The notes beneath the pieces were generated by a model, which did no database searches, was not told the DNA's origin, and worked only from the letters and a program-made list of their open reading frames with translations. A program made the position numbers and the translations under genes. This document shows positions 3,554 to 61,000 of a stretch of 64,000 nucleotides of DNA, piece after piece (position 1 is the stretch's first letter; every line of letters starts with the position of its first letter). The DNA lies in assembly GCA_965247605.1 (NCBI GenBank), contig CBDFHM010000011.1, positions 327,930-391,929 of the forward strand, read 5' to 3'. The stretch is from Dehalococcoidia bacterium (lineage in GTDB: Bacteria > Chloroflexota > Dehalococcoidia > Lucifugimonadales > UBA3495).

Positions 3554-3691
3554 CCTTGCCTCAAAAGTAGACAAAACCATGTCACCCTGAGCACATCGAA
3601 GGGTCTCGTTGGTAAGTTCAGCCTCACTCGAAGTGGCCCGAACCCAGATTCTTCGTCGCTTCACTCCTCAGAATGACAGGTTTGAGGCAAG
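3554..3691. repeat. Nested palindromic repeat cluster (copy A of the two-armed palindromic element, enclosed by an 11-bp outer inverted repeat)
   Basis: Inner arms are CATGTCACCCTGAGCACATCGAAGGGTCTC (3578-3607) and CAGATTCTTCGTCGCTTCACTCCTCAGAATGACAGG (3645-3680). Outer arms are CTTGCCTCAAA (3555-3565) and TTTGAGGCAAG (3681-3691). Related arm sequences occur at 20888, 27061 and 57355. Confidence 0.6.
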
Positions 3692-20767: not shown

Positions 20768-20887
20768 GGTCCGGGCGGCGCCGCCTAGGTGCTTGGTCTC
20801 CGACCATGAACCGGGCGTTTTGCCCACGGGTTTCCCATGGCTAACCCGATGTGCGGGTTCATTAAGCATCTCCCAAAAAATAAGGTA

Positions 20888-20998
20888 CTGTCACCCCGAG
20901 TGAAGCGAGGGGTCTGGGGAGGTGGGGTTGCCGCTGGTGGAGGAGATGCCCCACTCCAGATGTTTCGCCGCTGCGGCTGGCTCAACATGACATTTTCG
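20888..20998. repeat. Two-armed palindromic element, copy B (empty; opposite orientation to the GIY-YIG-bearing copy)
   Basis: The left arm is CTGTCACCCCGAGTGAAGCGAGGGGTCTGGGGAGGTGGGG. The reverse complement of the right arm is CGAAAATGTCATGTTGAGCCAGCCGCAGCGGCGAAACATCTGGAGTGGGG, which matches 47 of the first 50 nt of the left arm of the 57355 element. The loop is 21 nt. Confidence 0.8.
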
Positions 20999-21259
20999 GC
21001 GGAATGTTCGCGATTGAGGAGCCTAGGGTCTGGCATCCGGCCACCGGAAACATGCGCACCAGGTTAGCTAGGAATGCCCCTTGCGAACGTCAATAAGAGT
21101 TGAAAATGGACCGTCAGGCCCCTCTCTCACCGGCAAAAGGGCTGCCCCGATACCATCGTGGAGTCGCCTTCCCTGCCACGGCGGCCAATTATACGGTAAG
21201 AGGACCACGGACGGTCCGGGCAGCGGCCGGGGTTGGAGGTGGCCGACGGGCTGGCGCGG

Positions 21260-26728: not shown

Positions 26729-27060
26729 GAACTTTAAGTACTCCTTTAGGTCTAGAGCAAAGACCGTACCGGCTTCGCAGTAACTCTGGGTACCTTTCTG
26801 CTACCTAAAAGACCAACGATTGAGAATCAATCTTGGCCGGACCCTAGTGTATCACGGTCTCGTCCGGTCACGGACACGATCCGAAGGCCATGGCTGGAGG
26901 TCCCAGTTAGATGCGTCTTTCACCATATACTCCGCGCCCGCTCTAGCCCAGTAATCAATATCCCGCTCGGTACTATCGGAGCATCCCAAAGCATGGTGAG
27001 GGCCGGAGATGCTTATAGAGGCCCAAGGCGGGTGAGTGGGCAGATTCACCTAAATTCGGC

Positions 27061-27193
27061 CGAAAATGTCATGTTGAGCCAGTCTGCCTGTGGCGGACGA
27101 AATATCAGGGGCGGGGCGCCTCATCCGCGCCGGTCTGCCCCTCCTCCCCATCCTACCGCGGAAGGACTCGCTTCACTCGTGGTGACAGAATCG
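27061..27193. repeat. Two-armed palindromic element, copy C (empty, diverged)
   Basis: Left arm CGAAAATGTCATGTTGAGCCAGTCTGCCTGTGGCGGACGAAATATCAGGGGCGGGG, a 21-nt loop, and right arm CCCCTCCTCCCCATCCTACCGCGGAAGGACTCGCTTCACTCGTGGTGACAGAATCG. Confidence 0.7.
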
Positions 27194-27231
27194 TTGTAGC
27201 TGGGGCATGCTACTAAATTGCGCACAATGCG

Positions 27232-28242
27232 TTAGATACCTTTCACATGGGGTATCACCTCCCGCCCCATGACCTCGATCTGGTGCAGTGGGCGCTCCTG
27301 GTCCATACCCGGCCATTGCATCCGGAAAATGAGGTAGTTGACGCCCAGTTCATCGCCGTATCGTCGTATCTCCTGCACCACCTGAGCGGGGGAGCCCAAG
27401 AGAAACCGGTCCTTGGCCAGTTCCGGGAATGGCATGGTGAAGTTCTCCTCGCCCGGCATGACCTTATCCTGGCCCCATGAGGCGTAGGCCGCATACTTTC
27501 CCTCCAGGTACGGTTGGGATTCTAGATAGGCCGTTTCCTGGTCCTGGGCCAGGTAAAGCTCGCGCATCATGGGTAGAACCTCGGGGATTGGTTGACCCGC
27601 CCGGTCCAACTCGGTGCGGTACAGGGCAAGTTGTTTCGCCAGCGCCGGGACCGTGGAATGGGGGTTCACCAACCAGGGATAGCCCCACCGGGCCGCCCGC
27701 CGAATGGCTGAATCGCCATTGGCCGCCACCCAGATGGGTGGGTGTGGCTTCTGGACCGGCCGGGTGGAGGGCTTCACCTTGGGCACCTGGTAGTATTGCC
27801 CGTGGTGCTCCACCTCTTCTTCGGTCCAGAGTCTTTTCATAACATCAAGCGCCTCCCTCAGCCGGCCTACCCGCTGGCTGCGCTCCGAACCGAAGGCGGT
27901 ATACTCTTCATCCCGGTAGCCCAGGCCAACGCCGAACACAAACTTGCCGCCGCAAATGGCGTCCATGGTGGCGACGCTTTCGGCCAGGTCCACCGGATTG
28001 TGCAGGGGTACCAGAATCACCGTTGAGGCCACTTCCATGTCACCCGACTCGGCGGACAGCCGGGCCAGCAATGGGAAATTTGCGCTCATCTGGTAGGGCG
28101 CGGACAGGTAATGCTGGCCCGCACAGATCAGGTCGAAACCGGCCCGGCGCGCCGCGCGAACCTGCTCCACGCTTTCTTGTATCTTAAGGGGCATCGACTC
28201 CCCAGGCAGGTATTGAGCGTTGATGAAGAGTCCCAGTTTCAT
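27232..28242 (-). CDS. Luciferase-like (LLM class) flavin/F420-dependent oxidoreductase
   Basis: 336-aa intact ORF with typical LLM TIM-barrel motifs (..GFDLICAGQHY.., ..PHPPIWVAANGDSAIRRAARWG..). Confidence 0.8.
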   Translation of the reverse strand: MKLGLFINAQYLPGESMPLKIQESVEQVRAARRAGFDLICAGQHYLSAPYQMSANFPLLARLSAESGDMEVASTVILVPLHNPVDLAESVATMDAICGGKFVFGVGLGYRDEEYTAFGSERSQRVGRLREALDVMKRLWTEEEVEHHGQYYQVPKVKPSTRPVQKPHPPIWVAANGDSAIRRAARWGYPWLVNPHSTVPALAKQLALYRTELDRAGQPIPEVLPMMRELYLAQDQETAYLESQPYLEGKYAAYASWGQDKVMPGEENFTMPFPELAKDRFLLGSPAQVVQEIRRYGDELGVNYLIFRMQWPGMDQERPLHQIEVMGREVIPHVKGI

Positions 28243-37596: not shown

Positions 37597-37821
37597 CGTG
37601 TTTCCTCCGTAAGCTTTCAGCTAAATGGTAAGGGCCTTCTTGATTAGTCGTCTAGCGAAACTTTCAGCATAGGTGCCGGAGCCTATTGGTGCACTGTCGG
37701 ATGCGGATACCTTTATACAGCAAGGGTATGACGCCCCTCTCTGATGTTGCCCCAGTTTAGCACCGGAGCCAGCCCGCCACAATCTGAACCTGGAGACCCC
37801 TCGGGAGCTGAGAATCGCCCG

Positions 37822-38225: not shown

Positions 38226-38253
38226 CTGATAGCTGAACGCTGACGGCTGATAG
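38226..38253 (+). repeat. Heptamer tandem array (CTGATAG CTGAACG CTGACGG CTGATAG)
   Basis: Read directly. Ends 18 nt upstream of the ATG at 38272. Confidence 0.6.
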
Positions 38254-38271
38254 CCTGCGGAGCGTGACAAC

Positions 38272-51822: not shown

Positions 51823-51840
51823 CGGTGCTTCCTAAAATAG

Positions 51841-51949
51841 CTGTCAGCATTCAGCGATCAGCGATCAGCGATCAGCGATCAGCGATCAGCGGTCAGCAGT
51901 CCTCAGGCCTACTCCTGATGGCTGACGGCTGATCGCTGATCGCTGATCG
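51841..51949. repeat. Inverted pair of heptamer arrays: (NNNTCAG)x7, including CGATCAG x4, facing (CTGANNG)x5
   Basis: The sequence is CTGTCAG CATTCAG CGATCAG CGATCAG CGATCAG CGATCAG CGGTCAG, a spacer of about 25 nt, then CTGATGG CTGACGG CTGATCG CTGATCG CTGATCG. The two arrays can pair as a long hairpin. It lies between the peptidase-MA stop and the PPIase start. Confidence 0.85.
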
Positions 51950-51999
51950 CTCGCAAAGCTTGGCCCAGAGCATACCAGAAAGTCCGGGCATGGTGAAAG

Positions 52000-55389: not shown

Positions 55390-55419
55390 TTGATAAGCCG
55401 TACATCCGTTCTATATAAT
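55390..55419 (+). promoter_or_regulatory. Candidate promoter with LexA (Cheo-box-like) site for the mutasome cassette
   Basis: TTGATA (55390-55395), 18-nt spacer, TATAAT (55414-55419). The spacer contains CGTACATCCGTTCT (55399-55412), compared with the Gram-positive/Dehalococcoides-type consensus CGAACRNRYGTTYC. There are 3 mismatches, one of them in the GAAC half. Confidence 0.3.
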
Positions 55420-55445
55420 CCCGAAGCTATTCCACGTGTGGGGAG

Positions 55446-55507
55446 CAATCAGCCGTCAGCGGTCAGCAATCAGCCCCCACCCCAAAGCTGAGAGCTGATA
55501 GCTAAGA
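55446..55507. repeat. Inverted heptamer arrays immediately upstream of the four-helix-bundle gene
   Basis: CAATCAG CCGTCAG CGGTCAG CAATCAG, then CCCCCACCCCAAA, then GCTGAGA GCTGATA GCTAAGA. ATG 55509 follows. Confidence 0.75.
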
Positions 55508-55508
55508 A

Positions 55509-55868
55509 ATGAAAGACTTTAGAGAGTTGAAAGTCTGGGAGAAGGGCCATCGGTTGGCCTTGGCTGTTTACAAGGCGACTGCCGCGTTTCCAAAAGATGA
55601 GCTGTACGGGCTGACCGGCCAAATCCGGCGGTCTTGCGTGTCTATCCCAGCCAATATTGCCGAAGGTTGCGGCAGGAATGGAGATGCCGAGCTTGCCCGT
55701 TTTCTCCAGATCGCCATGGGCTCGGCCAGTGAACTGGAGTACCACATCCTACTCGCCCACGATATCGGCTTACTGAGTAACGCAAGTTACGAGCAGCTTT
55801 CACTAGATACGACCGAGGTTAAGCGAATGTTGGCATCCTTCATCCATACACTGAAAGCTGACCGCTGA
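55509..55868 (+). CDS. Four-helix-bundle protein (23S rRNA-intervening-sequence protein family)
   Basis: FRELKVWEKGHRLALAVYKATAAFPKDELYGLTGQIRRSCVSIPANIAEGCGR...FLQIAMGSASELEYHILLA is the family signature. Confidence 0.85.
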   Translation: MKDFRELKVWEKGHRLALAVYKATAAFPKDELYGLTGQIRRSCVSIPANIAEGCGRNGDAELARFLQIAMGSASELEYHILLAHDIGLLSNASYEQLSLDTTEVKRMLASFIHTLKADR

Positions 55869-55892
55869 AAGCTGACCGCTGATGGCTAAAAG
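55851..55892 (+). repeat. Heptamer tandem array spanning the 4HB stop and the imuB start
   Basis: CTGAAAG CTGACCG CTGAAAG CTGACCG CTGATGG CTAAAAG. The TGA stop is at 55866-55868 and the imuB ATG at 55882-55884. Confidence 0.8.
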
Positions 55893-57087
55893 CTTGATTG
55901 CTTGCCTGCTGGTAACCCACCTTCCCGTAAAAGCGGAGATAGGGCGCTATCCCCAGCTCCGGGGAAGGCCGGTTGTCATAACTGAGAGCTATGGCTCAAA
56001 GGAGCTGGTGCTGGACAGCTCCCCCGAGGCCCGGGGCGTTGCCGCCGGCATGTCCTTTCAGGAAGCCGTGTCCCGGTGCAAGGACGCGGTCCTGCTCCAG
56101 GTGGATGCTCCCTACTACGAGTCGCGCTTCGACGCGGTGGTCCGCTCCCTGGAGGGGAGAAGCCCCCTGGTGGAGAAGGGCGAGTTGGGCTGCGCTTACG
56201 TGGGGCTGGGCGGTCTGGAAGCAATGTACGGGGGCGAGGCCAGGCTGATAGCGACCTTGCTCCAGGCGGCGCCCCCTGAGTTCAATCCCCGTATCGGGGT
56301 GGCCGCTGGAAAGTTTCCGGCCTACGTCGCCGCGGTAACCAGCAGCAGCGGCCGGGCCACCAGGGTGCCCCGGGACGCCGCAGGGTTCCTCAAGGAGTAC
56401 TCCATAGACCTGCTGCCCCTGTCCTGGGAAAACAAGTCCCGCCTGCACCACTTCGGGCTGCACACCCTGGGCCAGTTGGCCGCCCTGCCGGTGGGGTCCG
56501 TCCAGGCCCAGCTAAAGTCTGAGGGCAGGAGGGCTTGGGAGCTGGCCGGCGGCATCGACTCCAGTCCCTTGGCGCCCTACCAGCGCGAGGAGGTAGTTGA
56601 TGAGTTCCTCACCTTTCCTTCACCCACCGTAGACCGCCACGCCATCCTGATGGGCCTGGAGATCTTGCTGGGCAGGGCCTTTGCCCGCCCGGAAATCAGG
56701 GGCAGGTATGTCCGCACCGCCACCGTCGAGAGCCAGGTTGGGCCGAGAAAACCTCCCTGGTCCCGGCGCTTCCCTTTCAAGGATGCGGTGGGCAGCAAGG
56801 AGAAGGCCCTGTGGGTCCTGAAAAGCCGGCTGGATACAATGCTGGATACAAGGGCCCTACCCGGACCTCTGGAGGATATGAAGCTGACTTTGGCCGGGTT
56901 CACCGGCGAAACCGGCATCCAGGCTAGCCTTTTCTCCGACGTCCGCCGGCGGGAGCAGCTCCGGGAGATGATGCGCCAGTTGGAGGCGCTCCTGGGTTGC
57001 AAGCCGCCCATCTACCAGGTAAAGGATGTGGAACCATGGTCCAGAGTTCCCGAAAGACGTCAGGCCCTGGTCCAATTCGAGCCCTGA
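55882..57087 (+). CDS. imuB: ImuB-like inactive Y-family DNA polymerase
   Basis: Y-family fold (..SPLVEKGELGCAYVGLGGLE.., ..LPLSWENKSRLHHFGLHTLGQLAALP.. HhH). The N-terminal acidic catalytic motif is replaced (LLVTHLPVKAE). It lies upstream of dnaE2. Confidence 0.75.
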   Translation: MAKSLIACLLVTHLPVKAEIGRYPQLRGRPVVITESYGSKELVLDSSPEARGVAAGMSFQEAVSRCKDAVLLQVDAPYYESRFDAVVRSLEGRSPLVEKGELGCAYVGLGGLEAMYGGEARLIATLLQAAPPEFNPRIGVAAGKFPAYVAAVTSSSGRATRVPRDAAGFLKEYSIDLLPLSWENKSRLHHFGLHTLGQLAALPVGSVQAQLKSEGRRAWELAGGIDSSPLAPYQREEVVDEFLTFPSPTVDRHAILMGLEILLGRAFARPEIRGRYVRTATVESQVGPRKPPWSRRFPFKDAVGSKEKALWVLKSRLDTMLDTRALPGPLEDMKLTLAGFTGETGIQASLFSDVRRREQLREMMRQLEALLGCKPPIYQVKDVEPWSRVPERRQALVQFEP

Positions 57088-57323
57088 ACCTTCCCGTACC
57101 CCTGGCCGTTGAAGAGGATGCCCACCAGAAGCCCCTGGCCCTTACCCTGCGAGGCCGAAGGTTCGAGGTGGCCTCCATAGACGACCTGTGGGAAATCGGC
57201 GACCAGTGGTGGCGGGAGAAGGCCGTGTCCAGGAAGTATTACCAGGTAGCCATTGGGGAGGGCAGACGCATCACCATCTTTCGGGACCTGATTTCCGGGG
57301 GATGGTACCGGCAGAAGGGTTAG
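57036..57323 (+). CDS. Small conserved-looking hypothetical protein downstream of imuB (start uncertain)
   Basis: ...LALTLRGRRFEVASIDDLWEIGDQWWREKAVSRKYYQVAIGEGRRITIFRDLISGGWYRQKG. The only ATG in frame (57036) overlaps the imuB 3' end by about 50 nt. Confidence 0.45.
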   Translation: MVQSSRKTSGPGPIRALNLPVPLAVEEDAHQKPLALTLRGRRFEVASIDDLWEIGDQWWREKAVSRKYYQVAIGEGRRITIFRDLISGGWYRQKG

Positions 57324-57351
57324 GCGATCAGCTATGAGCAGTCAGCTATCG
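57324..57351 (+). repeat. Heptamer tandem array (GCGATCA GCTATGA GCAGTCA GCTATCG)
   Basis: Read directly. Abuts the left arm of the GIY-YIG element. Confidence 0.55.
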
Positions 57352-57354
57352 GTA

Positions 57355-57746
57355 CGAAAATGTCATGCTGAGCCAGCCGCAGCGGCGAAGCATCTGGGGT
57401 GGGGCTGAACTCTGTAGTGAACCAATACTACGTTTACATCATGTCCAGCCATCGAGGGACGCTCTACATCGGCGTAACCAACAACCTTCTACGCCGAGTG
57501 CATGAACACCGCCATAAACTTGTAGACGGATTCACCAAAAGGTATAACGTCTCAAAGCTAGTATATTACGAGGTAACAGAGAATATTGAGTCTGCGATTG
57601 TGCGAGAGAAGCAGATCAAAGGTTGGCTGCGCCGTAAGAAGGTTGACCTTATTGAATCGTCGAATCCCTATTGGATTGACTTGGCCGAAGCGTGGAGTGG
57701 GAGCCCCGCCACCCCAGACCCTTCGCTTCACTCAGGGTGACAATTC
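57355..57746 (+). mobile_element. Two-armed palindromic element, copy D, carrying a GIY-YIG nuclease gene in its loop
   Basis: The left arm (57355-57405) is CGAAAATGTCATGCTGAGCCAGCCGCAGCGGCGAAGCATCTGGGGTGGGGC. The reverse complement of the right arm (57703-57746) is GAATTGTCACCCTGAGTGAAGCGAAGGGTCTGGGGTGGCGGGGC. The same two arm types flank only 21-nt loops at 20888-20998 and 27061-27193. Confidence 0.7.
57399..57740 (+). CDS. GIY-YIG nuclease family protein (UPF0213-like)
   Basis: YYVYIMSSHRGTLYIGVTNNLLRRVHEHRHKLVDGFTKRYNVSKLVYYEVTENIESAIVREKQIKGWLRRKKVDLIESSNPYWIDL. The true start may be GTG 57417. The last 14 codons run into the right repeat arm. Confidence 0.8.
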   Translation: MGLNSVVNQYYVYIMSSHRGTLYIGVTNNLLRRVHEHRHKLVDGFTKRYNVSKLVYYEVTENIESAIVREKQIKGWLRRKKVDLIESSNPYWIDLAEAWSGSPATPDPSLHSG

Positions 57747-57802
57747 TCGCCCCTATGCATCGGTTTCTTTCGGGCCAAAAAGGAGATGTGACGTTCAAGA
57801 GT

Positions 57803-58041
57803 GGTCTTGCGTGTCTATCCCAGCCAACATTGCCGAAGGTTGCGGCAGGAATGGAGACGCTGAGCTTGCTCGGTTCCTCCAGATCGCCATGGGTTCGGCC
57901 AGTGAACTGGAGTACCACCTTATGCTCAGTCGCGACCTCGGCTTGCTGACTGCTGTAGAACACAAGCAACTTACTGCAGACACCACGGAAGTGAAGCGTA
58001 TGCTTACATCCTTCATTCAAACTCTAAAAGCTAACCGCTGA
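57803..58041 (+). pseudogene. 5'-truncated second copy of the four-helix-bundle gene
   Basis: From GGTCTTGCGTGTCTATCCCAGCC onward it is near-identical in nucleotide sequence to 55636-55868 (SCVSIPANIAEGCGRNGDAELARFLQIAMGSASELEYH...). The first 42 or so codons are missing, replaced by the GIY-YIG element plus about 56 nt. Confidence 0.8.
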
Positions 58042-58071
58042 CCCTGATAGCTGACCGCTGATGACTGATAG
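58024..58071 (+). repeat. Heptamer array spanning the truncated-4HB stop and the dnaE2 start
   Basis: CTAAAAG CTAACCG CTGACCC TGATAG CTGACCG CTGATGA CTGATAG. The TGA is at 58039-58041 and the dnaE2 ATG at 58061-58063. GCTGACCGCTGATG is shared with the imuB start. Confidence 0.8.
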
Positions 58072-61000
58072 CTTCGTATACGCCGAACTCCACTGCCACA
58101 GTAACTACTCTTTCCAGGAGGGGGCCTCCTCCGTGGAGGAGCTGCTGGTACGCTCCAGGGACCTGGGCTACCAGGCCCTGGCCCTGACCGACCACGACAA
58201 CCTATGCGGGGCGATGCACTTTGCCCAGGTTGCCCGGAGCCTGGACGTGCAGGCCATCACCGGAGCGGAGGTCACCCTCAAGGACGGCTCCCACCTGACC
58301 CTTCTGGCCGAGACGCGGCAGGGATACAGCAACCTGTGCCGGATGATCTCCTACTCCCACATTGCCGGCGATCGCAGGAACCCCGGCCTGGAGCTCAAAT
58401 ACCTGCCGGAGTTGGCCCAGGGCATCATCCTGCTCACCGGCTGCCGGCAGGGGCCGGTGCCGGCCCTTGTGGCCCAAGGACGCCACCGGGAGGCCGAAGA
58501 CGCGCTGGCCCAGTACCTGGACTGGTTCGGTACGGCCAACGTCTTCGTGGAGCTGCAGCAGAACCTGATCAAGGGCGACACCACGCGTAACCGGCGGCTC
58601 ATGGAGCTGGCCCGCAAGTTTGACCTCGCGCCGGTGGCCACCAACAACGTCCACTACCACATCCCGGAGCGCCACCGGCTCCAGGATGCCCTGGTGGCCA
58701 TCCGCAACAACCAGAGTCTGGAGGAGACCCACCGGGAACGCCGCCCCAACGGGCAGTTTTACCTCAAGCCTCCGGCGGAAATAGCGGACCTGTTTCGTGA
58801 GTGCCCCCAGGCCGTGGCGAACACCCTGCGGATAGCCGGCCGGTGCACCTTTGACATTACCAGGGACCTGGGCTACCGGTTTCCCGACTACCCGGTGCCC
58901 CAAGGTTTCACTTCCCAGAGCTACCTGGAGCACCTGTGTTACCAGGCCGCCGAACGCCGCTACGGCGGCATCAACGAAAAAGTAAAGACGCGGCTGGAGG
59001 AGGAGTTTCGCCTGATCCAGAAACATGACCTGGCGGGGTTCTTCCTGATTTACTACGAGATCATTCAGATGGCCCGGCAGATCATGATCGAGCTGGGCCT
59101 GAGCGAGGTGGAGATACCCCTGGAAGAGCGTCCGCCGGGAAGGGGCAGGGGCTCCTCGGTGGCCATGCTGGTGGGCTACCTCATCGGTCTCTCCCACATC
59201 GACCCACTGGAGTTCAACCTCTCCCTGGATCGTTTTCTCTCCGACGACATGGGCTCGGTCCCCGACATCGACCTGGACTTTCCCCGCAACATCCGGGAGG
59301 AGCTGATCAAGCGGGTGCACCAGAAGTGGGGATGGGACCATGCCACCCTCACCGGGATGATCAGCACCTATCGGATGAAGGGCGCCATCCGGGACCTGGG
59401 CAAGGCATTGGGGCTTCCTTCACAGGAGGTGGACAAGCTGGCCAAGCGGGTAGATTCTCACAGTGCCAGGGAGCTGGAGCTGGAGATGCGGTCGCTGCCC
59501 GAGTTCCGGGAAAAGGTGGACTTTCCCGGGTGGCGCGACCTCATCGACCTGGCGGCCCAACTGGACGGGTTCCCCAAGTACCTGGCCCAACACCCCGGCG
59601 GCATGATTATCAGCTCCTCTCCACTCATCGACATGGTGCCGGTGCAACAGGCGGCCATCGATGAGCGCTACATCTGCCATTGGGATAAGGACAGCATCGA
59701 CCAGGCCGGCTTCGTGAAGATCGACTTTCTGGCCCTGGGCGCCTTGTCCCAGATGCAGGAAACCCTCCAGCTTATCGAGGAGCGGGAGGGCCACTACATC
59801 GACCTGAGCCGCATCGATTTCGAGGACCAGGCAGTGTACGGGATGATGCACCGGGCCGATACCATCGGAATATTCCAGGTGGAGTCGGCGGCCCAGATGC
59901 AGACCGTCCCCCGCATCAAGCCCGTGAACCTGACCGACATGGCCTATGAAGTAGGGGCGGTACGTCCCGGCGTTGGGGTCAACGACGGGGTCACCCAGTT
60001 CATTCAGCGGCGTACGCAGAATGTACCCTGGGACTACGACCATTCCTTGGAACGGCGGGCCCTGGAACGGACCCTGGGCATCATCCTGTTTCAGGACCAG
60101 GTAAACCAGGTGGCCATGGACGTGGCCGGGTTCACCGCCGTGGAGGCGGACCAGCTCCGGCGGGCCTTTAACCGGAGGAACAACCAGGACTTGATCGCTT
60201 TCTACTGGGAAAAGTTTCGGCAGGGGGCCGTTGACCTGGGCGTTCCCGAGGACGTGGCCCAGAAGATCTTCAAGAAGTTCAATGGCCACTATATGTTTCC
60301 CGAGTCCCACGCCTTCGCCTTTGGCGCCACCGCTTACCATATGGCCTGGCTCAAGTATTACTATCCCTTGGAATTCTTCGTCGCCATCTTCAACCAGCAG
60401 CCCATGGGGTTCTACAATACGGAAACCTTGAAGGAGGATGCCCGGCGCCACGGAATAACCGTCCTCAACCCGGACATCAACGCCAGCATGGAGAAGTGCA
60501 TCGTCAAAGACGAGTCCCTGCTGCTGGGGTTCCTGTATGTAAGAGGTGTGGGAGAAACTGGTGCGGAGGCGATTGTCCAGGCAAGGGAGGGGGATGGCCC
60601 CTTTGCCAGCCTGGCCGATGTGATGCAGCGGACCGGGTTGCAGCAAGAAGCCGTGGAGAACCTGGTGAAGGCCGGGGCCTTGGACTCTCTGCAAACTGTT
60701 GCGGGAATCCCCCCTAGCCCCCCTGAAATCCCCCCAACCCCCCTTTACGAAAGGGGGGCACGGGGGGATTTTGGTGAGCCCTCAGGCGGTGTAAGGGCGA
60801 TTCGCGAATCGCCCCTACAAGACACACCTGTTGAACCCGTTCGTGGTGAGCTTGTTGAACCACGAGCGGTGCCTGGCTCGGTGCCTGGTTCAATCGAAAA
60901 ACCGGACCGGGACAAGCCGGACCGCAGGACAGCCCTATGGGAGGTGGGGCTGCGCTATCACCCCGTTGGATACCAGCAGCCGCTGCCCCTTCCCGTGGAG

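Follow-up and report, generated by a model that had tools for sequence, protein, structure and literature searches.

A putative Ssn-family GIY-YIG gene between outward-facing SRM-type hairpins, and gene-less hairpin dimers, in a Dehalococcoidia genome

The window analysed here, a 64-kb stretch (64,000 nucleotides, nt) of the genome of a Dehalococcoidia bacterium, contains at 57355-57746 a gene for a small GIY-YIG nuclease enclosed by two inverted repeat arms (copy D), and arms of the same two types occur elsewhere in the window with only a short spacer between them. The locus raises the question of how the copies with and without a gene are related, and whether either kind moves. The initial annotation saw filled and empty sites of one element, and offered either a GIY-YIG gene that homes into the loop of a dispersed palindrome or a hairpin-ended element that has lost its cargo in most copies. 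The analysis reported here points to a different relationship: copy D is probably a gene of the Ssn family lying between two outward-facing hairpins of the SRM type, the gene-less copies A, B and C are head-to-head SRM dimers, and the whole behaves in the manner of the REPIN-RAYT systems. The architecture itself is already published (2025). New here are the precise absence of dimer B from the corresponding site in a relative that has a similar pair elsewhere (L087; loci and genomes used for comparison carry L numbers) and the presence of the 401-bp gene unit in different slots of one operon. Comparison between genomes yields modest evidence for mobility of the gene-less dimers and, less often, of the gene unit.

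The gene unit and the gene-less dimers

The whole SRM-ssn-SRM unit occupies 57355-57755 on the forward strand (401 nt, limits set by comparison with the related genome L083), and its last ~10 nt may stem from the adjoining gene of the 23S_rRNA_IVP (four-helix-bundle) family, here called IVP. The left arm (57355-57405, forward) consists of a CGAAAA leader, a type-1 SRM hairpin at 57361-57397 with the structure TGTCA-TGCTGAG-loop-CGAAGCA-TCTGG, and a G-rich inner extension, CTGGGGTGGGGC. The right arm (57696-57746, reverse) contains a type-2 SRM hairpin at 57714-57742, which on the minus strand reads TGTCA-CCCTGAG-TGAAG-CGAAGGG-TCTGG, and it too is extended inward, the inner extensions of the two arms being complementary to each other. 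The heads of both hairpins thus face outward, forward at 57361-57397 and reverse at 57714-57742, with the ssn-like gene between them; this is the only ssn copy in the 64 kb. The recurrence of both arms at 20888-20998, reported by the initial annotation, was confirmed, since 48 of the 51 nt of the left arm (57355-57405) agree with the reverse complement of 20948-20998 (94%), and 57696-57742 of the right arm is 85% identical over 47 nt to the reverse complement of 20889-20935. The more diverged copy that it placed near 27061-27193 was also recovered, both arm types being matched at 27054-27211.

The ssn-like gene itself (57417-57740, forward) has 107 codons and a single GIY-YIG domain. Its likelier start is the GTG at 57417, 12 nt past the left arm, and an alternative GTG at 57399 would reach the arm; its 3' end enters the right arm, so that the last ~14 codons (SGSPATPDPSLHSG) are a read-through of the arm that follows a protein core of ~93 amino acids (aa). 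The earlier statement that both ends of the open reading frame (ORF) run into the arms therefore holds for the 3' end, and for the 5' end only if GTG 57399 is the start. The predicted GIY-YIG identity stood, with a Pfam PF01541 match at E = 3.8e-15 to residues 9-81 of the 113-aa ORF; the sole further Pfam match is a sub-threshold one to the GIY-YIG-like T5orf172 family, which overlaps the first. An AlphaFold2 model (mean pLDDT, the predicted local distance difference test score, of 85) is one compact GIY-YIG fold with a disordered tail (residues 101-113, pLDDT <50), and neither Pfam nor the model gives any second domain or DNA-binding domain. In 33 aligned homologues Y4/Y7, Y17, R26, E64 and N83 are invariant (numbering from GTG 57417). 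The catalytic residues of Neisseria meningitidis SsnA are Y6, Y17 and E64 (Chenal et al. 2025, PMC11893778), and Tyr17 and Glu64 of the present protein carry the same numbers, an equivalence that is one of position only. The best fold matches of the model are to the UPF0213 protein BH0048, Slx1 and UvrC, and the UPF0213/YhbQ-type (PDB 1ZG2, BH0048) and Slx1 proteins share the GIY-YIG fold; unlike the gene described here, however, genes of these two families have not been reported between SRM repeats. In sequence the protein is only weakly similar to BH0048 (E = 4e-4, 27% identity), so the label "UPF0213-type" given earlier is imprecise, and the context of the gene suggests membership of the Ssn clade of Chenal et al. 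2025.

Three gene-less dimers accompany this unit. Dimer A (3580-3678, forward) was missed by the initial annotation and came from a motif scan as a fourth two-armed copy; its arms, TGTCACCCTGAG..CGAAGGGTCT on the forward and TGTCATTCTGAG..CGAAGAATCTGG on the reverse strand, lie 35 nt apart. Dimer B (20837-21010, reverse), located between atpC and a convergent gene, has a type-2 arm at 20889-20917 (forward), a 20-nt spacer, a type-1 arm at 20956-20992 (reverse) and a tail of ~51 nt at 20838-20888. Dimer C (27060-27250, forward; arm pair 27067-27193) has degenerate type-1 and type-2 arms and a spacer and tail of the same family as those of B. All four pairs in the window are intergenic and head-to-head, the copies are spread across 54 kb, and B, C and D are heterodimers of a type-1 and a type-2 arm. 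The inner end of each arm is complementary to the G-rich stretch CTGGGGTGGGGC inside its partner. The 20-nt spacer of B and C, nTCTCCTCCACCAnnGGCAA, recurs in one dimer of L087, and all three dimers also have a tail of ~55 nt on the far side of the type-2 arm; D has neither. To judge from these comparisons, the three dimers form a separate, non-autonomous lineage that would share the arms alone with the gene unit, and with a spacer and tail of their own they are not recent copies of D that have lost their cargo, as had been suggested.

Hairpin structure and occurrence in other phyla

In each arm TGTCA is followed by one half of a 5-nt stem, by GAG, a loop and CGA, and then by the other, complementary half of the stem and TCTGG, and the 5-nt stem pairs vary yet stay complementary (ACCCT/AGGGT, ATGCT/AGCAT, ATTCT/AGAAT, ACCCC/GGGGT and ATGTT/AACAT). 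The GAG and CGA portions give a tandem G.A flanked by a G-C pair. Type-1 arms have an ATGYT stem and a 13-nt loop, CCAGCCGCAGCGG, and type-2 arms an ACCCY stem, which begins A-C and not A-T, with the loop TGAAG. All eight arms in the window open with TGTCA, and their stems are of the kind ATGCTGAG/CGAAGCAT, with the two G.A positions. A scan of the window for structures with an HGTC head, an 8-position stem (no more than 2 mismatches), a 3-24-nt loop and a CYNB tail found seven hairpins, versus a mean of 1.12 (standard deviation 1.05, maximum 4) in 100 dinucleotide-preserving shuffles. The paired arms of A, B and D account for six of them; C is not represented, its arms being too degenerate. 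From the window and 98 loci, 136 distinct CTGAG/CGAAG-type arms were picked on the basis of the fixed positions alone. Three stem positions are free to vary, and in 117 of these arms they show perfect complementarity, with eight different triplets, which points to strong covariation for a hairpin in arms of this type.

Two results weigh against reading the arms as SRM hairpins. Six arms and dimers were folded as single-stranded DNA with nearest-neighbour energies; five do no better than shuffled sequences (z between -0.6 and +1.0), and only the minus strand of A folds better (z = -2.5), so the hairpin claim is carried by the covariation. In addition, the published SRM pattern, HGTCWYN(0-2)YYVSBRHN(0-5)WNVSBRGN(0-2)RNCYNB, fits no arm in the window and gives one unrelated match (1469-1498, versus 0.7 expected); the heads (TGTCAT/TGTCAC) and tails (ATCTGG/GTCTGG) of the arms do fit it, and the mismatch lies in their middle, with its CTGAG/CGAAG stem and longer loops. 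The G/C-rich composition and the unremarkable z-scores of most folded sequences are what could be said for chance, or for purely local duplication, as the source of the arm similarity. We give that explanation virtually no chance in the face of seven hairpins where 1.1 are expected, copies that span 54 kb, the same arrangement in more than ten phyla and complementary stems in 117 of 136 arms.

Rfam gives no match at the gathering level in the window and none at E <= 10 around D. Around B every match was below threshold, and one of them, to Hammerhead_3 (14.6 bits, E = 1.5), was rejected: the sequence is an arm without the CUGANGA core, and the gathering score is 48.5. An unpaired SRM-like hairpin, CGTCATACCCTTGCTGTATAAAGGTATCCGC, lies at 37703-37733 on the reverse strand, and may be due to chance, since shuffled sequences yield ~1.1 matches per window.

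The family to which the gene is assigned was described by Chenal et al. 2025 (Nat Commun 16:2388, PMC11893778). Ssn is a single-domain GIY-YIG protein of ~94 aa (CDD cd10448) that binds an oriented hairpin repeat, called NTS in Neisseria and SRM generally, only as single-stranded DNA, cuts it a few nt upstream, and does not cut duplex DNA or RNA; an SRM is found nearby in 71% of Ssn homologues and on both sides in 42%. Those authors demonstrated a role in limiting transformation in N. meningitidis, likened NTS-ssnA-NTS to an insertion sequence and to the RAYT/REP systems (REP, repetitive extragenic palindrome), and left mobility as a hypothesis (PMC11893778); our literature search found no later paper on Ssn mobility.

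The protein from the window has at least 1363 homologues. In a sample of 80 loci on contigs from one genome per species, from more than ten phyla and with 82 homologous genes, a forward arm is present no more than 250 nt upstream of 47 of the 82 and a reverse arm downstream of 44, with both present for 35 and at least one for 56. The consistent pairing of arms around homologues, on which the initial annotation had made its idea of a mobile cargo depend, is thus found. The CTGAG/CGAAG arm variant is common beside homologues in more than ten phyla, and 12 homologues with 48-63% protein identity have canonical NTS-type motifs on both sides (for example TGTCATTCCCGCGCAGGCGGGAATCCAG). Gene-less pairs also occur in the 80 loci, 33 of them head-to-head (in 26 of the loci), 16 tail-to-tail and 22 in tandem. 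The C-terminal tails PDPSLHSG of some homologues and PPQTLRFAQGDK of others are one DNA arm read in two frames, indicating that the arm is conserved as DNA and not as protein; some N-terminal extensions (CHSERSEESG) are likewise the left arm in translation.

The system in the window therefore resembles that of Chenal et al. in its small single-domain GIY-YIG protein (~95-107 aa), in the oriented hairpin repeats on both sides (HGTCWY head, 8-bp stem, RNCYNB tail) and in the hundreds of homologues across phyla in the same context. It differs from published SRMs in that the arms are of the CTGAG/CGAAG class, with a tandem G.A in the stem, loops of 5-13 nt and G-rich inner extensions by which the left and right arms are complementary; the host belongs to a Chloroflexota-like lineage and is not a proteobacterial symbiont, and, unlike the earlier study, the present one has comparative evidence for turnover of gene-less dimers. 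That a common SRM class with tandem G.A is missed by the published pattern matters for repeat censuses and for the choice of new Ssn/target pairs as single-stranded DNA tools.

Two further kinds of repeat system are close in organization. The CGTC/TGTC-tagged REPs (Di Nocera et al. 2013, BMC Genomics 14:522, PMC3733652), which include Neisseria dRS3 and Rickettsia RPE-4/6, are abundant repeats to which the SRMs correspond, and dimers A, B and C probably belong to this super-family. These REPs have stems that start with A-T pairs, are mostly head-to-head dimers and "lack a dedicated transposase". The arms in the window are like them in the TGTC head, in an 8-9 bp stem that begins A-T, in the short loops of type-2 arms, and in an intergenic, mainly head-to-head and often heterodimeric arrangement; they are unlike them in the 13-nt structured loop of the type-1 arm and in the conserved ~55-nt tail of the dimers, and the 2013 study, which found no dedicated enzyme, did not report CGTC repeats for Chloroflexi. 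REPIN-RAYT systems (Bertels and Rainey 2011, PMC3116915; Nunvar 2010, PMC2817692) similarly have a nuclease gene between inverted copies of a presumably recognised repeat, gene-less inverted doublets dispersed in intergenic DNA, and a gene that is apparently single-copy and vertically resident while the doublets turn over. The enzyme in the window is a GIY-YIG protein and not an HUH/Y1 (IS200-like) tyrosine transposase, so this resemblance is one of function and architecture only; the repeats, moreover, are not GTAG-tagged.

Presence, absence and slots in related genomes

Relatives of the window were recovered through ImuB and through identical AtpE. L087, which is 87-91% identical to the window across the atp operon, lacks precisely 20837-21010 at the atpC site, and this span is the B unit as delimited independently by comparison of the copies; the matching site in L087 has no arms, and a B-like unit that is 83% identical lies between other genes of that genome. 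L082 is 95.5% identical to the window across imuB/DUF6504 and, after the 7-nt repeat (heptamer) array, has an intact IVP 5' end in the place taken in the window by the ssn unit and a truncated IVP gene. No arms are present in L082 at the position of D. The truncated gene (57803-58041, forward; codons ~43-119, PF05635 profile positions 38-106) aligns with 55630-55868 at 80% identity and has lost its first ~42 codons, as had been noted from the outset, with the ssn unit in place of the 5' part; the upstream array of this IVP unit is at 57323-57350 (forward), and the ssn unit begins directly after it.

In the two relatives that lack an element the arms are lacking as well, and the units therefore appear to come and go whole, which argues against a gene that homes into the loop of a resident dimer. 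Such homing would begin with a cut by Ssn in an empty dimer, mended from the copy that bears the gene with the ~50-nt arms as homology. It has in its favour that B and D have arms with 94% and 85% identity, enough for short-patch recombination, and that GIY-YIG homing endonucleases exist in phages and organelles. We nevertheless regard it as highly improbable. The position of D in L082 is without arms as well as gene and that of B in L087 without arms, so neither is the empty site that the initial annotation envisaged; D is without the spacer and the ~55-nt tail that are conserved in the dimers; and the protein, unlike GIY-YIG homing endonucleases, has no second domain and none for DNA binding, while the characterised Ssn enzymes leave duplex DNA uncut (PMC11893778). 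Of the earlier suggestion of a mobile element, then, mobility receives some support from presence and absence between relatives, and insertion of the gene into a loop does not.

The gene unit itself occurs in two slots of the imuB-DUF6504-dnaE2 operon. The unit at 57355-57755 is 93.5% identical over 401 nt to L083 5957-6357, which lies in the other slot: in L083/L084 the ssn unit is upstream of imuB, in place of the first ~79 codons of the other IVP copy, and the downstream slot holds a DUF559 gene. The window, L094, L095 and L001 (Chloroflexota; the closest species-level genome) carry the gene in the downstream slot, and L083/L084 and L096-L098 carry it in the upstream one. The homologues in the operons of L094-L098 are 77-85% identical, and residence of close homologues in this operon reaches down to ~71% protein identity (L001, L094-L098). 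L085 also has a copy of the unit, 86% identical, which follows a Mo-hydroxylase gene in an unrelated setting. A general link of ssn to imuB-dnaE2 was considered and rejected, since among the 80 sampled loci only that of the closest lineage, L001, has it and the other 79 do not; the link appears to be specific to the lineage of the window. The simplest reading of these sequences would be a long residence of ssn in the imuB-DUF6504-dnaE2 operon with occasional relocation.

The same comparisons contain points that tell against mobility. No target-site duplication was seen, and the difference between the window and L087 at B may be an insertion or a precise loss, in either direction. The L082 contig stops 206 nt into the IVP gene, and ssn could lie further downstream in the slot. 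The divergence of the ssn unit (93.5% identity) is about that of the host genes of the same relatives (93.2%), and the change of slot could be due to recombination between the two IVP units rather than to transposition. This last explanation may hold because both junctions follow the same end of the heptamer array, TCAGCTATC followed by GGT, which is identical in the window and L083.

Several minor features of these loci touch on the same genes. The L085 copy of ssn has a premature stop (85 aa; L085 5540-5560) and the L082 IVP gene has an in-frame TGA at about codon 41 (L082 1165-1175); both small genes, IVP and ssn, decay in some lineages. The downstream slot of L095 (1985-2640) contains a cluster resembling a bacterial interspersed mosaic element, with a gene-less head-to-head SRM dimer, ssn and a further SRM, in which ssn has a degenerate left arm together with its right arm. 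In the matching upstream-slot units of L083 and L096 the left arm has another type of stem and loop, a sign that arms may be exchanged between copies.

By analogy with the Neisseria and Wolbachia enzymes, the protein would bind each hairpin on the strand on which TGTCA reads forward, only when that strand is single-stranded and in one orientation. Suitable occasions could be the lagging-strand template, displaced or incoming strands and, because the gene lies in the imuB-dnaE2 operon, possibly the SOS response. The predicted cut is ~3 nt 5' of the TGTCA head, at ~57357/57358 (top strand) and ~57745/57746 (bottom strand), and these cuts would fall just outside both ends of the unit, on opposite strands. 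To our knowledge, nucleases of the GIY-YIG superfamily make no covalent DNA intermediate, so copying of the dimers would have to use host replication and repair, and their spread presumably needs both this and cleavage by Ssn. One nuclease gene, long resident in the imuB-DUF6504-dnaE2 operon, would thus serve short gene-less dimers that form the dispersing, non-autonomous part of the system.

The SRM-ssn-SRM unit could alternatively be an autonomous, actively transposing element of the insertion sequence type that moves as a whole 401-bp unit after cuts by Ssn outside both heads, with the dimers as its miniature inverted-repeat transposable elements. An architecture like that of an insertion sequence was remarked on by Chenal et al. 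(PMC11893778), and in the present data the 93.5% likeness of the unit at non-matching positions in the window and L083, the L085 copy in its unrelated context, and unit limits within a few nt of the cut sites predicted by analogy are all in keeping with such an element. Its sub-terminal hairpins recognised in single-stranded DNA and its very small size also recall IS200/IS605; those elements, however, have an HUH transposase and both ends on the same strand, whereas here the catalytic fold is another one and the inverted arms put the two cleavable orientations on opposite strands. Lacking a covalent intermediate, the protein cannot join strands alone. We consider the autonomous element unlikely, since the homologues that share the operon down to ~71% protein identity diverge like host genes, which fits vertical residence; IVP units with heptamer arrays are present in both slots, and homologous recombination between them could explain the change of slot; a short IVP fragment may be present on the right flank of D; and the 64 kb contain only one ssn copy.

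A third explanation makes mobility irrelevant: the system would be domesticated by the host, either for genome maintenance by restricting incoming or displaced single-stranded DNA or as REP-like elements that act on transcripts or topology, and the dimers would spread by ordinary duplication or recombination. The transformation-limiting role demonstrated in N. meningitidis (PMC11893778), the long residence in a mutagenesis operon of the SOS type, upstream of which a promoter-like site is conserved, and the intergenic location of all dimers, with B between convergent genes, accord with this. It leaves unexplained the precise presence and absence of the whole B unit and the near-identical unit elsewhere in L087, and no terminator-like features were found. 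Such domestication is a possibility that we rate as rather unlikely though far from negligible, and it does not exclude an Ssn-family gene between SRM hairpins with REPIN-RAYT-like dimers, with which it is compatible.

The further step, that the gene-less SRM dimers are truly mobile, non-autonomous and dependent on the resident Ssn, so that the whole is a GIY-YIG-based counterpart of REPIN-RAYT, is one that we put forward tentatively, and on balance with more doubt than confidence. If true, it would imply a new, host-repair-dependent route of transposition and identify the long-missing mobilising enzyme of the CGTC/TGTC-tagged REPs. The window and its relatives amount to a small natural experiment, in which the B dimer is present or absent at a matching site and the gene unit occupies alternative slots, and they make the question of mobility directly testable in an uncultured Chloroflexota-like lineage.

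Neighbouring repeats and the imuB-DUF6504-dnaE2 operon

The IVP genes (TIGR02436) of the window themselves each lie between two inverted arrays of a 7-nt repeat (CAGCGAT/CAGCTAT type), at 55444-55475 and 55851-55895 for the first and at 57323-57350 and 58044-58074 for the second. A gene-less inverted pair of such arrays is present at 51839-51951 (10-nt spacer, 41-nt arms, 88% complementary), and single arrays are found at 2473-2503 and 38226-38256. The heptamer arrays are thus a second repeat system of the window that is found with and without cargo. In relatives the two operon slots hold DUF559 genes (Vsr-like endonuclease, PF04480) with G/C-rich inverted repeats of their own (L081 5500-5990 and 7450-7900, L083 7940-8375, L096 5518-5829), and those of L081 adjoin a remnant of the IVP 3' end. 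IVP, Ssn and DUF559 genes are found in the same slots, so that three kinds of repeat-flanked small gene alternate at a hot spot in the imuB-DUF6504-dnaE2 operon.

A promoter-like site at 55390-55419 (TTGATA-18-TATAAT, 11 of 12 positions) lies upstream of the first IVP gene and imuB and is conserved in L081, L083 and L096, with GTAC-N4-GTTC directly before it. Control of this site by LexA and the SOS response is possible, in which case ssn would be expressed together with the mutagenesis cassette. We note that a small ORF at 56997-57323, which overlaps the end of imuB, has a weak DUF6504 match (E = 0.0027, below the cut-off), and that its position between imuB and dnaE2 is kept in all relatives examined.

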